A stretch of 64,000 bases of DNA from Candidatus Heimdallarchaeota archaeon (GTDB taxonomy: Archaea > Asgardarchaeota > Heimdallarchaeia > JABLTI01). Of the stretch, positions 2,943-35,155 are shown in pieces (positions within the stretch are counted from its first letter, which is position 1; each line of letters opens with the position of its first letter). Position numbers and translations under genes: made by a program. Location of the stretch: positions 128,001 to 192,000 of the forward strand of contig JABCTZ010000026.1 in assembly GCA_018238155.1 (NCBI GenBank), read 5' to 3'. Under the pieces are notes generated by a model that had not been told where the DNA came from, searched no databases, and worked only from the letters and a program-made list of their open reading frames with translations.

Positions 2943-3075
2943 GTTTATTTGATTTTAATGGTTTAAATGAATAACGCAAGTGGTATATTATACCAAATAC
3001 TCTCACCATCTTACAAAAAATTATAATGCTTAAAGAATGATAAAATATTAGAGCGCATTTATTGAGTGATAGCAA

Positions 3076-4605
3076 TTGAGTAAAGTGGAATTTAAACAAC
3101 TTAGTCCTGCGGATTTCTTCTACCGCAACAGGGAATTAGCTGGTTTTGACACGCCTATAAAAAGTCTCTATACAGCCTTCAGAGAAATATTGGAAAATTC
3201 TTTGGATGGCGCAGAAATAGGCGGTATAAATCCAGATATATTTATTGCAATTAGAAAACGAAGTGATGACGTTTACACGATTTTTATAAGTGATAACGGA
3301 ATAGGCATCCCAAGTAAAAAAGTGCCGGGTGCACTTGCGAAGCTTCTTTTTGGTGGGAAATATGTTGAAAGACAATCTCGAGGGCATTTTGGACTCGGAG
3401 CATCTATGACTGTTCTTTATTCTCAAATTACAACCAATCTGCCAACACGAGTATTAAGTTGTACGAGAGGGAGTAATGAAATTGATGAATATCACCTTAT
3501 GATCAATATCCAGCGAAATGAACCAATCATAAGGTATCACAAAAAATTACCCAACAAAAAGAAATGGCATGGCGTGACTGTTGAAGTCAATATTGAAGGA
3601 GATTATGCACGAGCGCATCCAAAAATCTTGGAATATGTTAAAGCAACAGCCATGGTTGCACCTTATGCAGATATAACATTCATTGATGCCTATGGTACTC
3701 TGTACAAATTCAATAAAGTAATCAACGAAGTCCCAAAACTAGGTGAACCTGTTTTACCACATCCAAGAGGTGTTGATACAGAAAAAATGCTTAGGTTGTT
3801 GAGAGTTGCAAGACAAAGATCAATGAACAAATTTCTCCAAAGTAATTTCCAACGAATAGGAGAAATTACAGCAAAAAATTTCTTGAAATATGTGGATATT
3901 AAATTAGATAAAGACCCGCAAAAATTAGAACACGATGAAATTGTCCGAATAGTTCAAGGAATGAATTCCTTTGAAGATTTTCTCAGCCCAGAAACGAAGT
4001 GTCTCTCTCCAATTGGAGAGGATGTTCTTACAAAAGGAATAGTGAAAGAACTGAAACCGGAATTTATTACAGCAATAACGAGAAGACCACAAGCATATTC
4101 AGGACATCCTTTCGTCATAGAAGTAGCTTTTGCTTATGGAGGAAAAACAATTGAGAAAAGCTCTGAACCGAACTTATTTAGATTTGCAAATAGAATACCT
4201 CTACTTTATGATCAATATGCAGATGTCTCAGCCAAAGTAATTCGAACATTCAACTGGCGAATGTACAAGGTACCAGACAATGCTCAATTAGCAATCATAA
4301 CTCATGTTGCTTCAACGAAAGTTCCTTACAGAACAGCAGGGAAGGAGTCTATTTCTGATCGAGATGAAATTGAACGTGAAGTAAGATTAGCGATGCAAGT
4401 TTGTGCAAGAAAACTTCGAGTGTATCTTTCGAGAATAGATCGAGAGCTAAGACAAGCACAACGAACAAGTATTTTTGAGAAATATGTACCGTACATTGCT
4501 CAATTTGCTACTAGACTCAGTGGAAAGAAGACTGTTCCCTCTACTGACTTTGTTTTAAGAGGAACAAAAGCGGAAAATCATAAAGTCAATTCAGGTGAGA
4601 AATGA
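3076..4605 (+). CDS. top6B: DNA topoisomerase VI subunit B
   Basis: GHKL motifs EILENSLD, DNGIGI, QSRGHFGLG; RFANRIPL transducer motif. Confidence 0.97.
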   Translation: MSKVEFKQLSPADFFYRNRELAGFDTPIKSLYTAFREILENSLDGAEIGGINPDIFIAIRKRSDDVYTIFISDNGIGIPSKKVPGALAKLLFGGKYVERQSRGHFGLGASMTVLYSQITTNLPTRVLSCTRGSNEIDEYHLMINIQRNEPIIRYHKKLPNKKKWHGVTVEVNIEGDYARAHPKILEYVKATAMVAPYADITFIDAYGTLYKFNKVINEVPKLGEPVLPHPRGVDTEKMLRLLRVARQRSMNKFLQSNFQRIGEITAKNFLKYVDIKLDKDPQKLEHDEIVRIVQGMNSFEDFLSPETKCLSPIGEDVLTKGIVKELKPEFITAITRRPQAYSGHPFVIEVAFAYGGKTIEKSSEPNLFRFANRIPLLYDQYADVSAKVIRTFNWRMYKVPDNAQLAIITHVASTKVPYRTAGKESISDRDEIEREVRLAMQVCARKLRVYLSRIDRELRQAQRTSIFEKYVPYIAQFATRLSGKKTVPSTDFVLRGTKAENHKVNSGEK

Positions 4606-5731
4606 AATGTCAAAACAAAAACCGGAAAATCATGCAGAAAAAATCAAGGAAAAATCATATGAAAAATTGGTTGCACTTGGAAATAAAATATACAAACAAC
4701 TCCAAGAAGAAAAATATCCTGAATTTGACATGCCATCAAGAACGAGCTCTAACATCTATTATGATGAGAAGACAAGGCAATTTTCACTCGGAAAAAAGAA
4801 AATTAAAAGATCATCAAGAAATGTTAGACATTTAAAACCATTTCTGCAAACAATGTTCGTAGCGATGTTCGCCGCACGAGACCTTTTAGAACCCGGAAGA
4901 ACAAGCACATTAAGAGATCTATATTATTCCTCTGAATCATCATTAGCAAAAATGTTCAAAAGCCAATCTGAATCTGATAACATTATTACAGATGTAGAAT
5001 CAATTATCGGAATGGCTCGAGAAGATTTCAATATTTTTCCAGATGCTCGAAGCACAATTTATGGTGATCTTACAATTTCTTTCAAAGATAAGAAAACAGG
5101 AAATAAACGAGAGATAAATCTCACATTTAACCCAGATGGACAGACAATAGGACCTACAATGGTTCGAAGCGATTTTGAAAAAACATCAGCAAAAAAAGTA
5201 ATCTGTATAGAATCTGGTGGTATGTTTCAAAGATTAATAGAGGAAGATGCTGACGAACAATTTGATGCTATCCTCGTTCACCTGGCAGGCCAAGCTCCTC
5301 GAGGAACTAGACGGATTATTAGAAGGTTAAATGAAGAACTCGGTTTACCTGTCTATGCTTTTGTTGACGGCGATCCATGGGGAATACACATTTACAACGT
5401 CATTGCGGCTGGTAGTGCAAGTGCAGCTCATCTTTCCGGTTTAACCACTCCGGATGCGATTTGGATGGGCTTAACAGCTACAGATATAACCAGATATGAG
5501 CTTCCAACAGATCAATTTTCAAAAGGAGACACAACACGCACTGTTCAATTACTTCGCGACCCCCGTTATCAGAAACCCTATCTCCAAGAAGAACTAAAGA
5601 AATTTCTGAAACTCAAACGAAAGGCAGAGCAGCAATCTCTCACTTCTAAGAGTCTTACTTTTGTTGTCGATGAATATTTGCCCGCAAAATTTAAGGAAAT
5701 TGAAAAGATGAAAAAGGAAGGAAAGTTATAA
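4595..5731 (+). CDS. top6A: DNA topoisomerase VI subunit A (Spo11 homolog); likely start ATG 4607
   Basis: Catalytic TLRDLYY; TOPRIM IESGG and VDGDPWG; KAEQQS; adjacent to top6B. Confidence 0.97.
   Translation: MRNEMSKQKPENHAEKIKEKSYEKLVALGNKIYKQLQEEKYPEFDMPSRTSSNIYYDEKTRQFSLGKKKIKRSSRNVRHLKPFLQTMFVAMFAARDLLEPGRTSTLRDLYYSSESSLAKMFKSQSESDNIITDVESIIGMAREDFNIFPDARSTIYGDLTISFKDKKTGNKREINLTFNPDGQTIGPTMVRSDFEKTSAKKVICIESGGMFQRLIEEDADEQFDAILVHLAGQAPRGTRRIIRRLNEELGLPVYAFVDGDPWGIHIYNVIAAGSASAAHLSGLTTPDAIWMGLTATDITRYELPTDQFSKGDTTRTVQLLRDPRYQKPYLQEELKKFLKLKRKAEQQSLTSKSLTFVVDEYLPAKFKEIEKMKKEGKL
5385..5731 (+). repeat. Left copy of direct repeat (3' end of intact top6A)
   Basis: Aligns to 12833-13176 at offset 7448; 18 mismatches in the first 277 bp by hand count. 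Confidence 0.95.
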
Positions 5732-5836: not shown

Positions 5837-6853
5837 CTATTCAATAATAAATCTAACTTCATTACTCACATCAAGTTCATAAGGATCATAATACCTTTCT
5901 TCAGAATTGTCGAAAAATTGTTTTATTATTTTAATTGCTTCAATTGAGCTAATTTCAGCAAGAAAATTAAGAGCAACTTCAATGACTTTATAATGAATAT
6001 CACTTAATCGAGAAACATACACATCGAAGAATTCTTCTTTACCAATTTGCCATTAAGCTTCTAATGCTCGTATTCGATACTTGTAGTAATGTTCACGCTC
6101 AAAGATTTCTTTCCGCTCTATATGAAAAACCAAAACTAAATTTGCATAGTTTTTCACCAGTGGAATTGCTTCTCTAATATTTACTTGTCCAATAATTGGC
6201 AGATAGTATTCAATTTCATAAACATCAATTGGAAATTCACTCTTGCTTGCTTTTTCGTAGAAAGTATTTAATTCATCTAAGATTAATGATATAAAATCCT
6301 GAATCTCAGATGCTTGAATATCTCCTTCCTTGATTTTCTTTGCTATAATTTCCAAAACATCAGGTATTTTATAATCTTTACCAATATCATACCATTCATC
6401 TAAAGTATAAGATAGTATTTTACCCCATAAATTTTTATCTTCTAGTTTTGCCATTACTTTCTCAGTTGTGATTTCCTCCCAATTATCGAATAAATCATCA
6501 TAGGGAACCTTCGTCTTTAATTTCCCTTTTGTTTTTTTGAATGTAGATACAATACATATTATTTCAAATACAAAATGAAAAATGAAGTAAAACATGCTCA
6601 TATAGAAACCGAAGGTAAATCTAACTTTGGGTATATATTCTGCTTGCATAAAGCTATATGGTTGAACAATAGTATACTTGAAAACACCAAAATAAGCTAA
6701 TCCAATTATTCCTAATATCCCACCGATTATTGAAATGATTGCTCCAATTAATAGACTTATTCTAATGTTATTTATTAATGACTTAATCATTATAAAGTTA
6801 ATTTTTTTTGCTTTTCTTAAATTTAGTTGCAATGAATATGCTGGAAATAGCAA
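5837..6853 (-). pseudogene. Membrane-anchored HEAT-repeat-like protein interrupted by nonsense codons
   Basis: ORFs 6053-6853 and 5837-6022 are in frame, separated by TAA plus 10 codons, reading RIRALEA*WQIGKEEFFDV (HEAT-like RxxALxALxxIG). Confidence 0.6.
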
Positions 6854-16058: not shown

Positions 16059-16380
16059 TTATTTCTTTACTTTCCTTCTTCTGGGTAATTTTAATGGTAA
16101 TGAAGAGACAAATAAAAATGAGTATTCTATCCATTTCTCCAGTATGGGAATATCTCTACAAATGGTCTCAGCTAAAGTCATATATTCTCTCATCTTTTTC
16201 CCCTCGAGAGGTTCGAAATGTTCCAAATCAGGATAACTCTTCTTGTATTACTTCTCTATCTTCCTCTGACAACCTTATGAAAATAGTATCTTCGTGTACT
16301 CCAGCAAACATATTATTATTTACGAAATAGGTAGTGCTCCCAAACATTCTCTTTAGAGAACACTTATAGGATTCGAGTAA
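16059..16380 (-). pseudogene. TfoX/Sxy N-terminal-domain family protein, frameshifted
   Basis: Minus-strand reading KRMFGSTTYFVNNNMFAGVHEDTIFIRL, then a frameshift to FEPLEGKKMREY...EKWIEYS..VSSLPLK; not in the ORF track. Confidence 0.75.
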
Positions 16381-16513
16381 CTATTCTCCATAATGAAATA
16401 TGTTAAGGTAAATCAATAATAACAGCAAAAGTAGCTTTTGGTAAAATCATATCTCGTACTTTTTGTGTAATTGCTATCAATGATCTATGTTTTTCTATCA
16501 AGTTCTTTTTTGA

Positions 16514-16720
16514 CTATTTTCCAGAATGCATCCTTTGTTGGCATTTACTAATCTGGAAACCAAACAATTCATCTAAGTAAATAGAATCTATAGAAAGAAT
16601 TTCACACAGTGATTTAACTAAAATGGTTTTATCATTTCCAGAAGCACCATTAATTACTGTTCTTTCAAAATTGGTCAATGAACCATCACTAATTAATCCA
16701 AAAACCACTAATTTAGCCAT
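16514..16720 (-). pseudogene. Degraded adenylate-kinase-like P-loop protein (FlaR/topology-modulation type), N-terminal fragment
   Basis: RTVINGASGNDKTILVKSLCEILSIDSIYLDELF resembles GxSGSGKTTL...LDxLFW with a broken P-loop. Confidence 0.6.
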
Positions 16721-16942
16721 TTTATGCTTATTGAAAAAAGTTTTACTTGTAATGTTAACCTAATTGTATGACAACTTTACTACAGTTATTGAAGTAAAGT
16801 GTAATTATATTAGATTTAGCTCTAAAACCTTTTTCTGTAAATATTTTCAGTAAGTTTATATATGACTGAGCAAAATATATTATTAATACTTAATGAAAAG
16901 AAGTATTGAAGTGAGAGAGAGTATCGTAAGAAAGATTGTGAG

Positions 16943-16983
16943 TCTTCACTAAACTTTTCTTCACTAAACTTTTCTTCACTAAA
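16943..16983 (+). repeat. 15-bp tandem repeat TCTTCACTAAACTTT, about 2.7 copies
   Basis: Read directly; ends 14 bp upstream of the ATG at 16998. Confidence 0.9.
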
Positions 16984-16997
16984 GGAATGATAAGAAA

Positions 16998-18215
16998 ATG
17001 AAAAAAATAACTACAATTAATACTTTACTGGTATTTTTGGTTATCATTGGAACAATCTTTGCTAATTTGAGCACAGTAGTTTCAATAATGCCAAAACATG
17101 AAATGCAAATGATTAAGAGCAAAGTAGAGAATCAAGTTGTTGATGATATTGATAACGACTTTGGTTATGAACTTGTACTACAAATTGATACTTACTTCAG
17201 GAGGGAAGCGGATTTCAACAAAATCAAAATTTCAACTTCTGTCTATTCTACTGGTATATTATTTGAAATAGATAATTCATTAATAATTATTGGACATGGT
17301 TACTATGATTCAAATAATCAATATTATATAGCTGATTATTCAGCTAATAGAATAAGTCAAATGGCTGAAAATAAAGAATTTGTAGCTTTATTAGCTTGCT
17401 ATTCAGATAATATAGATTTGGTTAATGAGTTAACATTGACTTATGAAGGTAAAATTGACTTAAAATCTGCAGTTAATGAATTAATCAAAATCCTTGATTG
17501 GAATCAGAATTCCAAATTTATTCCTATAAAAAATATCAGATTATTTGATCTTGATCCTGGCGGGGGTGGAGGACCAGTTCTATCCAGACATTATCAAAAT
17601 GGCATATGCTATGCATATACTGGTGCTGATGATGGCCATTATTGGAATCTAAATACACAAGCTGGTTTTTATGGTGCGGGTAATTGGTTGATGAGCCACA
17701 AAGGATATATTGCTGAGGTTTACGTTTCAGATTATTACTACGAAAAAATAGGTGAAAATACTTACAATTTGGTTTTCTCAGAAACAACTTATATTACCAA
17801 AGTTACAACAAAAAGCGATACATTGGACTATTTAAACATGGATGACATTGTTATTAATGGAGAATCTATAAATGACCATTACGAAACTAAAATCAATGGT
17901 TTAATAATTGTACTTGATAATGATCAAATCCTTGCTGGTATAGTTATTACTGCTGTTTTTGCATTAGTTTCTACATTAGTAACCGTAGGAGCCACTTTAT
18001 TGAAAGTTGGCTTAGCTCCAGTTGTTAAAGAAATATCAGTTACTTTAGCTGCAGCTGAAGCAGCAAATCTTGGTTTGGTGGCTGGTACATATACTTATAC
18101 TTACACAACAATAGCATCACTTACAATGACATTAATTGGTGTTACTTTATTAGTAATTGCAGTATTAATTATTGCAGGTGCAATTATATTTGGTATGTAT
18201 TACTTACAAAATTAG
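16998..18215 (+). CDS. Secreted protein: clan-CD (caspase/gingipain/CHAT-like) peptidase-like domain, DPGGGGG linker and hydrophobic C-terminus; candidate toxin precursor
   Basis: Signal peptide; LIIIGHG (His100) and VALLACYS (Cys134); Gly linker at residues 186-192; about 100 hydrophobic C-terminal residues. Confidence 0.55.
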   Translation: MKKITTINTLLVFLVIIGTIFANLSTVVSIMPKHEMQMIKSKVENQVVDDIDNDFGYELVLQIDTYFRREADFNKIKISTSVYSTGILFEIDNSLIIIGHGYYDSNNQYYIADYSANRISQMAENKEFVALLACYSDNIDLVNELTLTYEGKIDLKSAVNELIKILDWNQNSKFIPIKNIRLFDLDPGGGGGPVLSRHYQNGICYAYTGADDGHYWNLNTQAGFYGAGNWLMSHKGYIAEVYVSDYYYEKIGENTYNLVFSETTYITKVTTKSDTLDYLNMDDIVINGESINDHYETKINGLIIVLDNDQILAGIVITAVFALVSTLVTVGATLLKVGLAPVVKEISVTLAAAEAANLGLVAGTYTYTYTTIASLTMTLIGVTLLVIAVLIIAGAIIFGMYYLQN

Positions 18216-18223
18216 GAGTTGAT

Positions 18224-18682
18224 ATGATGAAGGATGTAAATATCATAGAACTAAATAAACTACATCTCGAAAATGAGCAACAGGTAATAGCTAAGGAACG
18301 ATTTGAATTCATAATGAAATTTTACTTAATTGTATTTTTCATTGCTTCATTTATTTCAATGTTAATAACGATAATTGGTGGAATATTAATTGGAATTGAA
18401 ATTAATTTTCTGGATCCATATTTAATCTTAATACTATTATCACTACCACTACTAATCTTCATAACAAATCTATTAATCTATTTACTTCCTATCATCAAAT
18501 TAAAACCAAATAAAAACGAACCATTTTATGGTATTAACTTTATCAAAATAGTAGAAGAACAAAAAAAACCTACTATGATTAAATATTTGATTAGAAAAAT
18601 CTTTCTAATCACTTTTTCTATTTTAGGAATTATCTCTACATTAGGAAATATCATTCTTTTTATTGTAGAAATTATAATCTAA
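18224..18682 (+). CDS. 3-TM membrane protein, candidate immunity protein
   Basis: Starts 8 bp after the preceding stop with a GGAG SD; paralog of 19434-19922. Confidence 0.6.
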   Translation: MMKDVNIIELNKLHLENEQQVIAKERFEFIMKFYLIVFFIASFISMLITIIGGILIGIEINFLDPYLILILLSLPLLIFITNLLIYLLPIIKLKPNKNEPFYGINFIKIVEEQKKPTMIKYLIRKIFLITFSILGIISTLGNIILFIVEIII

Positions 18683-18876
18683 TAGTTCAATCTATTTATT
18701 CTACCTTCTTTTATTTTATACCCCCACAATACTCAACTTTTTTTGGAATTACTCTGTTATTTTTTATAATTAAATAGTAATAAACCTGCTTCTAGAAAAA
18801 ATCTATTCCTCTTTACTATACTATATAACTCTGTAGGACAGATTAGTGAAGATTGTTAGAGCAAATTTACTAATAA

Positions 18877-19467
18877 AATAACAAAAAAATAAAATCACAA
18901 AAAGATACTTTTATTATCTACATAGGATTTGCAATTATTCAGCTACTGTTTCTTATACTTTCAGTGATTCTTCGAAATGGAACAGAAAATAAATTTCATG
19001 ATGAAATTGCCATACTAAATCAAAATTACTATTACACATTTTCGTTCTTTATGCGTCTTGTAACTTTTCTATTTTTCTTGGCAATTTTAATTTATATCAG
19101 CTTTTTAGGCTCTGAAATTAAATGCATAAAAAATATTGCTCTGGATGAAATTGACTTTGGAAATGCATTAGAAGAGATGTTTAACTCTACACGCCAAAAA
19201 TTCAAAAAAAGAAGAATTCTCTTATTGGTTGTCCTATTACTAGGATTTCTTGTGATAATTGGATCTCAAATCTATGTGCAGATTGGCATATTGTTTTTGT
19301 TATAACCTATTTTGGAAGGTTATTCTTCTAAATTTTTTTGGGTTAGCTTCAATATATTATTAAAGCTAGTTGAATTTGGAATTTACACTGGTATAGTGAT
19401 TGTAGTAATTGCAGTGGTTTTAACAATTGGAGCATGTATAATTTACTTTGTCCAAAAATACAGTTAG
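18877..19467 (+). pseudogene. Interrupted membrane-protein frame whose last about 28 codons resemble the C-terminus of the 16998 protein
   Basis: ORF 18964-19305 continues in frame past TAA to GIVIVVIAVVLTIGACIIYFVQKYS* (19467); compare GVTLLVIAVLIIAGAIIFGMYYLQN*. Confidence 0.5.
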
Positions 19468-19922
19468 AGATGATAAATTTGTCAACAAAATCAGAAAACG
19501 AAATCTATCGTACACAAGAATTAGCTTCAAAAATGTACTTTATTGTAATGATATTTTTGTCAATATTTGTTATGATAGCCTTCTTTCTTCTTTTCATTTA
19601 TTTTAACAATTATGAAGAAAGATTTAATGCATTAGATTTCAAATATGAAATAAGTATTTCAATCACAATTATAATACCAGTAATTCTATCGTTGCTCACT
19701 TTGATAATTTACATGAATCCATTGATTTCATATTTAGTGGGAATAAACAAGAAAGATAACGGCTTAATTGATTTCAAAGCCATTATGAAAGAACAATCGA
19801 ATCCTACAAAAAAGAGCTATAAAATTAGAAATTATCTAATTGTAATTCTTTTTCTTCTAACAATATTAACAATTATTGCTTCTTATGTCTATTTTTATAT
19901 CATAATATTTTTCTTGCTATAA
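19434..19922 (+). CDS. 3-TM membrane protein, paralog of 18224-18682 (orphan immunity candidate); true start probably 19470 or 19479
   Basis: GLIDFKAIMKEQSNPTKKSYKIRN versus GINFIKIVEEQKKPTMIKYLIRK; same topology. Confidence 0.65.
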   Translation: MYNLLCPKIQLEMINLSTKSENEIYRTQELASKMYFIVMIFLSIFVMIAFFLLFIYFNNYEERFNALDFKYEISISITIIIPVILSLLTLIIYMNPLISYLVGINKKDNGLIDFKAIMKEQSNPTKKSYKIRNYLIVILFLLTILTIIASYVYFYIIIFFLL

Positions 19923-20353
19923 AAAATGGTCATTCTCAGATACCAAAAAAACGATTTTTTCTTCTTTTTTTTTATTAATTATTTTGTTTGTGAATTTATT
20001 TAAGCAAATGAATAAACCAAATTAAAATTCTTGGATGCGTTTTTCTGAGATAATGAAAATATAATGATGTACTACAGAAACATTGAGAATTACTTGAAAG
20101 AACATTTTTTACTCTCAAAAAAAATGAAAAAAGTAGAGGGAAAGAAGATTCCTCCTCTCTATTGGTACTCACATTCACTTGCATATTACTATTCCAGACG
20201 TTTGCGTCGAATGACTGGTACAGCAAAAGATAAAGCAGTGCTAAGTGTTACCATAGAAACGGCGATACAATACCACCTTCTTTAGCAATAGTAGTATTCG
20301 ATCTGGAATTGTTATATTCTTCTGTATTGAACGGTGTATCTAAATTGGCATCA

Positions 20354-33763: not shown

Positions 33764-35155
33764 TTGAATATAAAATTCATTTCGAAAGTTGGAAGCTATT
33801 TACCGCCCAAAAATCTTTTACCTTTATTATTTGGTTATTCAATTGATCATATTGCACTTTCAACTTACTGGATTTTTTTTGGTATCTGGCTAAATGATAG
33901 TCTTATAGGACCTAATGAAACTATACCCTATCAATATCTATTACTAGCAGTTATTTTAGCCACTCCAGCTATCGTTTCTATTATTGGCACATCGATATTC
34001 AGTTCATTATCAGATAAAATTGGTCGCAGAAAAGAGATTATGTTACTTTCAAGATTATTATTAATGGTTCAATACATTCTACTGATATTCTTTGGTAGCT
34101 CTACGTTGAATGTTATTTTAATCCTAGGTACCTTTGGTTTATTCACTCAAATGTTCTATACAATGCATAGCGCATTATTAACATCAATTTGTCACCCTGA
34201 TAAAAGGGGACAAGTATCTAGTTTTCAAGTTCTTTTTGCTAGCTTTGGATGGATGATTGGCAGTGGTGTTTCAAGTCTTATCTACAGTTCATTTGACATT
34301 GTAGGAAGCCTTGGATTTGCTGCGGCGTTTGCTCTTCTTGCTGGTGTGATTGTTATGTTTTCACCTGCAAAACCATGGAATCATAAAGAATTGATACAAA
34401 AATCTATTGACGTTTCTATTGAGAGTGAAGAGCTTCTCATTAGTGAGATACAAGAGAAAGAGTCATCTCCAACTAAAATAGAAATAACAAATTTGCGAAC
34501 TGCAGCAGAAATCGTTCCTGAAAAGAAAAAACTTACAGCTTCGTACTGGCAGATTTTCAAAAGAAAAGAAGTTTTAAGCTTGTTAATTTCTCTTGCAATC
34601 GTTGATTTCGGATTTGGACCATTCAATGTTGTGGGGAATGTTTTTTTGAAAGAAGTTGGTTTAACAGATGATAATATTTCAGTAGCTAATGTGATTGCAA
34701 CGTTTCTGGGTATGCTAATGTTATTATTTATTGGTAAAGCTCTTGACAAAAGAGGGAGAAGACCAATCTTCTTAGTTGCCATTATTACTTATCCTATTCT
34801 TTATGGTCTTATATTTGCACTTATCAGTTTTCCAATCGCAATGTTCATCCTTTATCTCTATCCATTATACGCTTTGAAGGTCCCTGCTTCTAATGCAATT
34901 ATGTCTGATCTCACAACAGAAGATGAACGCGCAAGGGGGATGAGTTTAATTCAGTTTGAACAAATAATTTTTGCTAATTCAGGAGCGTTCTTAGCTTGTT
35001 TTATTGCAGACATATCAGCACAAGGGATATTTATTATTCCTATCTTTCCATTTGCATTTGGGATAATAGCGGTGATAGTTTCATTTCTAATCATGAAAGA
35101 AACTGACAAAAAATTATTATTACAAAGAAAAGGAAAAAGTGAACCTGTTAGTTAG
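33764..35155 (+). CDS. Major facilitator superfamily transporter
   Basis: SLSDKIGRRK and ALDKRGRR motif A; about 12 TMs. Confidence 0.9.
   Translation: MNIKFISKVGSYLPPKNLLPLLFGYSIDHIALSTYWIFFGIWLNDSLIGPNETIPYQYLLLAVILATPAIVSIIGTSIFSSLSDKIGRRKEIMLLSRLLLMVQYILLIFFGSSTLNVILILGTFGLFTQMFYTMHSALLTSICHPDKRGQVSSFQVLFASFGWMIGSGVSSLIYSSFDIVGSLGFAAAFALLAGVIVMFSPAKPWNHKELIQKSIDVSIESEELLISEIQEKESSPTKIEITNLRTAAEIVPEKKKLTASYWQIFKRKEVLSLLISLAIVDFGFGPFNVVGNVFLKEVGLTDDNISVANVIATFLGMLMLLFIGKALDKRGRRPIFLVAIITYPILYGLIFALISFPIAMFILYLYPLYALKVPASNAIMSDLTTEDERARGMSLIQFEQIIFANSGAFLACFIADISAQGIFIIPIFPFAFGIIAVIVSFLIMKETDKKLLLQRKGKSEPVS

Follow-up and report, generated by a model that had tools for sequence, protein, structure and literature searches.

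Contig JABCTZ010000026.1 of Candidatus Heimdallarchaeota archaeon (assembly GCA_018238155.1) carries a pair of adjoining genes for putative membrane proteins, and this pair, its relatives and its surroundings are described here. The window, meaning the whole 64,000-nucleotide (nt) stretch analysed, is part of the contig denoted C20 below, and the genome (G000) amounts to 4.08 Mb in 46 contigs; plain coordinates refer to the window. Gene 1 (16998..18215, + strand) is an open reading frame (ORF) encoding the 405-amino-acid (aa) product P0001, a predicted exported membrane protein. Gene 2 (18224..18682, +) starts 8 nt past the stop codon of gene 1 and encodes P0002, a 152-aa partner with three hydrophobic segments, read as transmembrane (TM) helices. 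The features of the locus are not due to chance: P0001 has 34 representative homologues (exhaustive HMMER search of 1.8 billion representative proteins), six paralogous copies of gene 1 are present in the genome, and all 31 sequences which span the relevant domain in a 35-sequence alignment retain the motifs GHG and [A/S/G]-C.

P0001 begins with MKK and an 18-residue hydrophobic stretch. Residues 1-30 (16998..17087, +) are read from the paralogue alignment as a signal peptide or N-terminal anchor; G18, A22 and N23 are conserved, and a signal-peptidase site between FA and N, picked by eye, is plausible. Identity of the signal peptide is 67-100% among five of the six paralogues in the genome, with the C10 copy at 44%. 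There follows a domain termed the head (residues 52-186; 17151..17555, +), which on the alignment, a structural model and fold searches is a putative mini CHAT/caspase-like domain. It contains His100 (codon 17295-17297, +) in the sequence LIIIGHG and Cys134 (codon 17397-17399, +) in VALLACYS, 34 residues apart. The linker LDPGGGGG, of which DPGGGGG makes up residues 186-192 (17553..17573, +), marks the breakpoint between conserved and variable parts and is a candidate cleavage site. Beyond it lie a variable, beta-rich alpha+beta domain, D2 (residues 200-312; 17595..17933, +), delimited from an AlphaFold2 (AF2) model, and a tail (residues 313-405; 17934..18212, +), likewise variable, which is hydrophobic and has many small residues. 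The 93 residues of the tail are 54% A/V/L/G, 42% A/G/S/T and 4% charged, and are predicted to fold as two long helices forming a membrane hairpin. All of the elements listed in a preliminary description of this DNA, from the signal peptide and the His and Cys residues after beta-strands to the linker, globular domain, hydrophobic tail and coupled 3-TM gene, were found in the places it had given.

Named homologues of P0001 are all from Heimdallarchaeota, with the exception of one marginal match in Hermodarchaeota (E 0.15). Matches occur in 14 of 83 genomes of the class (13 of the 82 others). The 82 others hold 0-2 copies, and the nine genomes with strong matches 1-2, against six here. Searches with P0001 gave no sequence match in Pfam, NCBIfam, PADLOC or PDB, and literature searches found no description of the family. 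The complete retention of the His and Cys motifs bears out the weight that the preliminary description had placed on the conservation of His100 and Cys134. The closest relative of P0001 was found on a metagenome contig (L008:5738-6969), where the big gene is split into frames of 98 and 322 aa overlapping at 6001-6034. This split, a frameshift or an assembly error, is followed by an intact partner gene.

Each of the six paralogous gene 1 copies is directly followed by a gene of 138-161 aa with three TM helices, and all of these partners belong to one family, with a motif E-x-x-x-P-T...K in the loop between TM2 and TM3. The partner also comes right after the big gene in L007, L008 and G009 (genomes or metagenome contigs), which together with the six pairs of this genome make up every big gene whose downstream DNA was read. 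Two relatives which lack the head, P0026 and P0032, retain D2 and the tail and have a partner-family gene 12-17 nt downstream (hhalign P 1e-12 and 1e-13). Since these head-less variants keep the partner, the partner belongs with the D2-tail part and not with the head. The tightly coupled 3-TM gene of the preliminary description is thus an obligate and co-varying neighbour in all pairs read, including those which follow head-less variants.

Variation along the pair rises from one end to the other. Mean pairwise identity over eight gene 1/gene 2 pairs is 58% in the signal, 53% in the head, 28% in D2, 22% in the tail and 21% in the partner. DNA homology to the paralogues on C4, C43, C44 and C45 and to the copies in G009 and G005 stops at 17463-17570 (residues ~156-191), and the four longest DNA matches stop at ~17560-17570 (residues 187-191), inside the LDPGGGG linker. 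Compared with the G009 protein, identity is 58% upstream of the linker and 25% downstream. Because DNA homology stops there and identity drops in this way, the linker is where a conserved 5' module meets an exchangeable 3' one. A conserved N-terminus joined to variable C-termini, which the preliminary description had expected of a toxin, is what was found, with the break at the Gly linker.

The motif LDPG[GD]SGNG was also looked for elsewhere in the genome, where it occurs only in family members and two Big_7 proteins, apart from two chance look-alikes. The Big_7 proteins (C4:111246-112478, -, and C10:62-1303, +; L024) are secreted and carry LDPGDSGNG right after the signal peptide. Each of their genes is followed by a gene for an LVIVD-repeat protein and then by a cassette. 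The motif in these proteins may be a site of cleavage in trans or a junction of domain shuffling.

The cassette lies in a block of 3.97 kb (16377..20349) which is missing from the same spacer, between a PALP-enzyme gene and a GNAT-acetyltransferase gene, in six congeneric genomes. The flanks of the block are 74-86 bp apart in G009:C71 and G001:C295 (86-87% nt identity), and the PALP-GNAT adjacency is also present in G002, G003, G006 and G008 at ~70-72% identity; across the six congeners the spacer measures 74-137 bp. Relative to these genomes the block is an insertion, and a recent one. At its left edge is a 5' fragment of a P-loop NTPase gene (16514..16720, -) with AAA-type Pfam matches and a degenerate Walker A motif, GASGNDKT, which reads GASGSGKT in the intact homologues in G009:C21 (L028 7301-7900) and on C44. 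At its right edge is a degenerate 3' fragment of a gene for a large TSP3-repeat surface protein (19967..20349, -). As both fragments come from genes which are neighbours in G009:C21 and on C44, the cassette sat first in the spacer between them and moved here later with truncated flanks. The insertion ends consist of these gene fragments; they show neither a target-site duplication nor terminal inverted repeats, and no recombinase was found there.

Between gene 2 and the right edge of the block are the remains of other copies. A decayed second partner gene (18877..19305, +) has lost its canonical start, leaving a residual ORF from GTG 18964 without TM1; its orthologue (57% aa identity) is the intact partner gene in the one cassette that G009 has. 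Next comes an orphan tail tip (19306..19467, +), an open frame without a start codon which resembles the last helix of family members. In family proteins its best matches always lie at the very C-terminal end; of 1000 composition-matched shuffles, 8 reach its score. A third partner-family gene (19470..19922, +), encoding 150 aa from ATG 19470, begins 2 nt beyond the stop codon which ends the orphan tip. It shares at most 30% identity with any other partner, too little to match the orphan module to a living pair. Displaced orphan modules are known from contact-dependent inhibition (CDI) and Rhs loci. Another array of extra partner genes is found on C44 (C44:110-2500; L025), where one big gene is followed by two partner-family genes, the second with its own partial leader copy (1976-2019) in front.

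The leader in question is a conserved 5' segment (16912..16997, + in the window) which precedes all six paralogues as well as other secreted-protein genes. At this locus it holds two 15-nt tandem repeats (16943-16972, TCTTCACTAAACTTT). In its fuller form it is ~145 nt long and sits directly upstream of the start codon, with a purine-rich box, AAGTATTRGAG..GAGAGAG..GTAAGAAAG, followed by 2-7 tandem 15-nt repeats (TCTTYACTAATCTTT) and then GGAATGATAAGAAA-ATG. The unrelated genes behind it include that of a Big_7 protein and that of a 554-aa secreted protein on C26. Copies in the genome lie at C45:1-144; C43:59649-59792; C10:1-61, 3047-3092, 4942-5008 and 132542-132668; C4:109383-109499 and 112479-112539; C44:9-109 and 1976-2019; C21:228132-228288; C22:1-157; and C26:19-119 and 34941-34996. 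Many of these are contig ends, so that the leader breaks the assembly. The leader has no Rfam match, and its folding z-score of -1.37 does not support a structured RNA. It may be a promoter or 5' untranslated region shared by a regulon of surface proteins, or a homology arm for recombination.

The head shows the dyad pattern of clan-CD peptidases, with IIIGHG and then ALL[A/S/G]C, each after a hydrophobic strand. His-Gly and a small residue before Cys, in this setting, are the signature of the clan. Asp113 was considered as a third catalytic residue and dropped: it is G, K, S or E in homologues, hence there is no triad. An AF2 model of the whole protein from 10 sequences was poor (predicted local distance difference test score, pLDDT, 54). 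A second model, restricted to residues 40-315 and based on the 35-sequence alignment, took its place, with a pLDDT of 85 and a predicted template modelling score (pTM) of 0.80. In the latter, His100 comes directly after a beta-strand at model residues 55-59 (protein residues 94-98), and Cys134 after one at model residues 89-93 (protein residues 128-132). D2 reaches a pLDDT of ~86-95 over most of its length and has no clear known fold, its structure matches all being at Z <5.

An exhaustive VIA-align search gave SAVED-CHAT (8tl0_A) as the top structural match, at Z 6.1 with 109 residues aligned to chain residues 317-463. This range includes the catalytic residues H375/C422 of SAVED-CHAT (bioRxiv 10.1101/2023.06.23.546230). 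The same search returned two legumains, three metacaspases, two separases, caspases 3 and 8, Dronc, GSU0716 and gingipain RgpB at Z 3.9-4.8, and about 14 clan-CD chains from six families fell within the top 50 structural matches. A model search of the ESM atlas returned a CHAT cluster with a TM-score of 0.45 (by the hit) over 112 aa and a root-mean-square deviation (rmsd) of 3.4 Å. When the head was aligned by hhalign with a profile of eight Heimdall CHAT domains, collected with PF12770, GHG fell on GH[G/A] and ACYS on ACE[S/T] (P 0.0049 and a score of 24.9, against a maximum of 15.8 among 40 column-permuted controls); this signal is weak and in part driven by the motifs themselves. Rows for MALT1 from Foldseek were discarded as meaningless, having an rmsd of ~20 Å. 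Taken with the conserved dyad, these results make homology of the head to clan CD likely, well above an even chance, with membership not proven. The head is thus probably a minimal, CHAT-like clan-CD protease of putative activity.

The preliminary description had proposed a clan-CD protease domain with a caspase-hemoglobinase fold, and this stands in part: the CHAT matches from VIA-align and the atlas and the in-register profile make it plausible, while Foldseek is negative, frataxin also scores, and no curated family model matches. Its more specific link to the C80 or CPD type fell away, as a scan of the 35 members gave a single Peptidase_C80 match (E 0.043, below the cut-off) and no C80 chain is among the top structural rows. 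PF12770 misses all six paralogues in the genome while finding a canonical 987-aa CHAT protein (C26:14153-14908, -; L011; E 4.9e-37), and a standard CHAT protease therefore coexists with the mini-head family. A feature search of the ESM atlas with the head gave unnamed clusters at 0.91-0.92 and DUF6345 at 0.87, which serve as leads only.

A profile search for other fusions of the head among longer proteins returned only the ~400-aa architecture. A six-frame search of the genome found a divergent head copy, IEHGYY ... LLASCDS (hhalign P 6.6e-5), in a 1090-aa surface protein whose gene abuts a contig end (C31:3-3272, -; L027). In this protein the head is followed by an Ala/Gly-rich membrane hairpin and then by ~600 aa of bacterial-type TSP3 repeats, which is a second architecture for the head domain. 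As the repeats after it are extracellular, the C31 hairpin is a membrane-spanning anchor with both flanks outside.

The tail of P0001 itself looks like a stop-transfer hairpin which would stay in the membrane of the producing cell because it is strongly hydrophobic. Compared with the PDB, a profile of the tail matched MakA, VCA0883 and Nhe/Hbl L1 at E 0.11-0.13, with compositional bias and short of significance. All scores from an ESM-atlas feature search with the tail were below 0.8 and at chance level, including a colicin cluster at 0.77. Given the stop-transfer appearance of the tail, release of a soluble pore-former is unlikely. If the signal peptide is removed, a cut in the linker would free the head and leave D2 and the tail in the membrane. 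The release of a membrane-active domain by self-cleavage, as first suggested, is therefore doubtful, the tail being hydrophobic enough to remain and the similar C31 hairpin being an anchor.

Bacterial polymorphic toxins offer the closest comparison. In these, caspase-like releasing peptidases are documented immediately before the variable toxin domains at the C-terminus, and systems of this sort have been reported as rare in archaea (PMC3482391). In common with the bacterial systems (Zhang et al., 2012; PMC3482391), the Heimdall cassette has a conserved export part at its N-terminus, followed by a caspase-like domain (putative in this case) directly before the hypervariable module at the C-terminus. 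Further shared features are a short conserved junction motif, a linked downstream cognate gene, orphan tip and partner modules, and a patchy, multi-copy spread. It differs in being archaeal and in having no T5/T6/T7/PVC delivery part, and its variable module is a membrane hairpin with D2 rather than a soluble nuclease, deaminase or similar, with no match to known toxin or immunity families. The departures from the bacterial model are the host lineage, the absence of a delivery domain, the membrane-embedded variable module and the miniature extracellular head.

Parts of the cassette recall other systems. CHAT proteases (PF12770; SAVED-CHAT, PDB 8tl0; TPR-CHAT/Craspase) have the same His-Gly ... 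small-Cys dyad after successive strands. However, they are cytoplasmic signalling proteases of ~250-290 aa which PF12770 detects, with a His-Cys spacing of 47 residues in SAVED-CHAT, whereas the head is ~135 aa, has a spacing of 34, is missed by PF12770 and would be extracellular and tethered to the membrane. Pore-forming colicins (A/E1/Ia) and ClyA-family toxins with 3-4-TM immunity proteins also combine an Ala/Gly/Val-rich hydrophobic hairpin with an adjoining small polytopic membrane protein which could block it in the bilayer, but the tail has no significant sequence or fold match to them; nor does P0001 have an amphipathic bundle to keep the hairpin soluble, so that the tail probably goes into the membrane of the producer itself. 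Junction motifs are known in CdiA (VENN) and Rhs (DPxGL), the latter being also the site of self-cleavage. LDPG-Gly likewise marks the point where conservation and DNA homology stop, but it is another motif, its cleavage is a candidate one, and a separate Cys-protease-like domain lies upstream. IdsD and IdsE of Proteus mirabilis form a self-identity pair in which IdsD is delivered by a type VI system. They too are side-by-side membrane proteins, and in both cases variable regions partly within the membrane would set cognate binding; the two pairs are not homologous, and type VI delivery belongs to IdsD, with none known for the Heimdall pair.

The best explanation of the locus, to which we give slightly less than an even chance, is that Heimdall-group archaea have a mobile, polymorphic and lineage-specific membrane module of two genes, an effector and its partner, of which the locus is one copy. 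Gene 1 would be exported by its Sec-type signal, its conserved front end (leader, signal peptide and head with His100/Cys134) being joined to a hypervariable D2-hairpin part at the LDPG-Gly linker. The hairpin would halt transfer and sit in the membrane, leaving head and D2 outside. A cut by the head at or near the linker, between LD and PGG, may then activate the D2-tail or shed the head. The D2-tail would be the effector or the determinant of identity, which the cognate 3-TM partner neutralises or recognises inside the membrane. New modules of D2-tail and partner would enter by recombination at the linker, with displaced remnants staying downstream. The genomic behaviour of the module, namely its variation, orphans, copy number and insertion, argues for D2-tail and partner as an effector-protector or identity pair, and the orphan modules, the multi-copy state and the insertion polymorphism agree with a toxin-immunity style of evolution, in line with the toxin and immunity gene proposed in the preliminary description. 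It is an inference that the head is an active protease and cuts at the linker, that non-cognate cells come to harm and that the partner protects against it. A fuller version is possible, on the unlikely side: a native Asgard system of polymorphic conflict or kin discrimination, unrelated in sequence to bacterial ones, in which an extracellular mini CHAT-like protease licenses a hypervariable membrane effector at LDPG, the cognate 3-TM protein gives self-protection, and modules recombine at the junction.

Several observations weigh against this explanation. Only a Sec-type signal is present, and Pfam scans found no trafficking domain, which leaves no sign of a delivery apparatus; with a putative effector that is an integral membrane segment in its own right, the route to another cell is unclear. 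Co-variation with the partner is weak (Spearman 0.28 for the tail, not significant, and 0.44 for D2, from non-independent pairs), and the conserved cytoplasmic loop motif of the partner suggests a function beyond simple neutralisation. The high N-terminal identity may in part be due to concerted evolution with the leader common to unrelated genes. As for the protease, no CHAT, caspase, C25, C13 or C80 model in Pfam detects the head family, Foldseek found no match in the PDB at E <= 0.001, and the Z of 6.1 falls in a range which VIA-align calls common, frataxin reaching Z 5.0 on head residues. The three successive short strands before His100 in the AF2 model resemble a meander, not the parallel beta-alpha-beta units of caspases. 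With ~135 aa, the head has roughly half the size that clan-CD domains are known to have. We know of no characterised clan-CD domain which is not much larger.

The last of these points also speak for a head which is not a protease at all. Its His and Cys would then hold a metal or ligand, or lend stability to a small alpha/beta module of frataxin-like type, with convergent likeness to clan CD, and P0001 would be a variable membrane protein. Frataxin and CyaY match head residues at Z 4.5-5.0, and the unusually small domain, the negative Foldseek search and the lack of a match to any clan-CD family sequence model all fit. We nevertheless consider this fairly improbable, given the number of clan-CD families among the best structural matches, the independent match to CHAT in the atlas, a CHAT profile which is in register at both residues and scores above 40 of 40 permuted controls, and a context of H-G and small-C after hydrophobic strands which is that of clan CD. 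If the head is a protease, its target may lie elsewhere. As a resident protease of surface maturation, anchored by the tail, it would cleave other exported proteins, such as Big_7, at LDPG-Gly, with the 3-TM protein as a regulatory or anchoring subunit and paralogues differing in substrate or surface variation. The restriction of LDPG[GD]SGNG to the family and to two Big_7 proteins, encoded two genes upstream of the C4 and C10 cassettes behind the same leader, is in keeping with this, as are the likeness of the tail to a permanent anchor and neighbouring surface proteins with LVIVD, Big_7 and TSP3 domains. This would leave unexplained why D2, tail and partner vary beside a conserved protease head, why head-less variants keep the partner, and how orphan tips and displaced partners arose; with only two candidate trans-substrates, we hold it to be distinctly unlikely.

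A different role for the variable part would be self/non-self recognition or adhesion without toxicity, similar to IdsD-IdsE, acting in kin recognition, cell-cell contact or interactions of membrane protrusions. D2-tail and partner would then set identity by binding each other if they are cognate and not otherwise, with the head only maturing the protein. The polymorphism gradient, the linker breakpoint, the orphans and the patchy multi-copy state fit recognition loci equally well; both proteins are integral to the membrane, variation reaches their membrane segments, and our searches gave no toxin fold and no delivery system. Yet the pair resembles none of the known recognition systems, six divergent pairs in a single genome are more typical of effector arsenals, and the extra partner-only genes and the decayed partner resemble the accumulation of immunity genes seen with toxins. 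Recognition of this kind therefore seems rather unlikely to us, and a mobile effector-partner module remains our preferred explanation.

Polymorphic toxin-immunity systems are central to the social conflicts of bacteria. Asgard archaea are the closest prokaryotic relatives of eukaryotes, and to our knowledge almost nothing is known of how they compete or recognise one another. If the explanation preferred here is true, the caspase/CHAT superfamily would gain a new family with the head, the smallest version yet and one which lies outside the cell. The cassette would also show that archaea swap effector modules at a defined junction motif, and its variable part would be a membrane-embedded effector of a new type, paired with a three-helix partner. 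The cassette is small (~1.7 kb) and directly testable. Were the conflict or kin-discrimination version to hold, it would mean that archaeal cells pass membrane proteins to one another or make contact with those of other cells.

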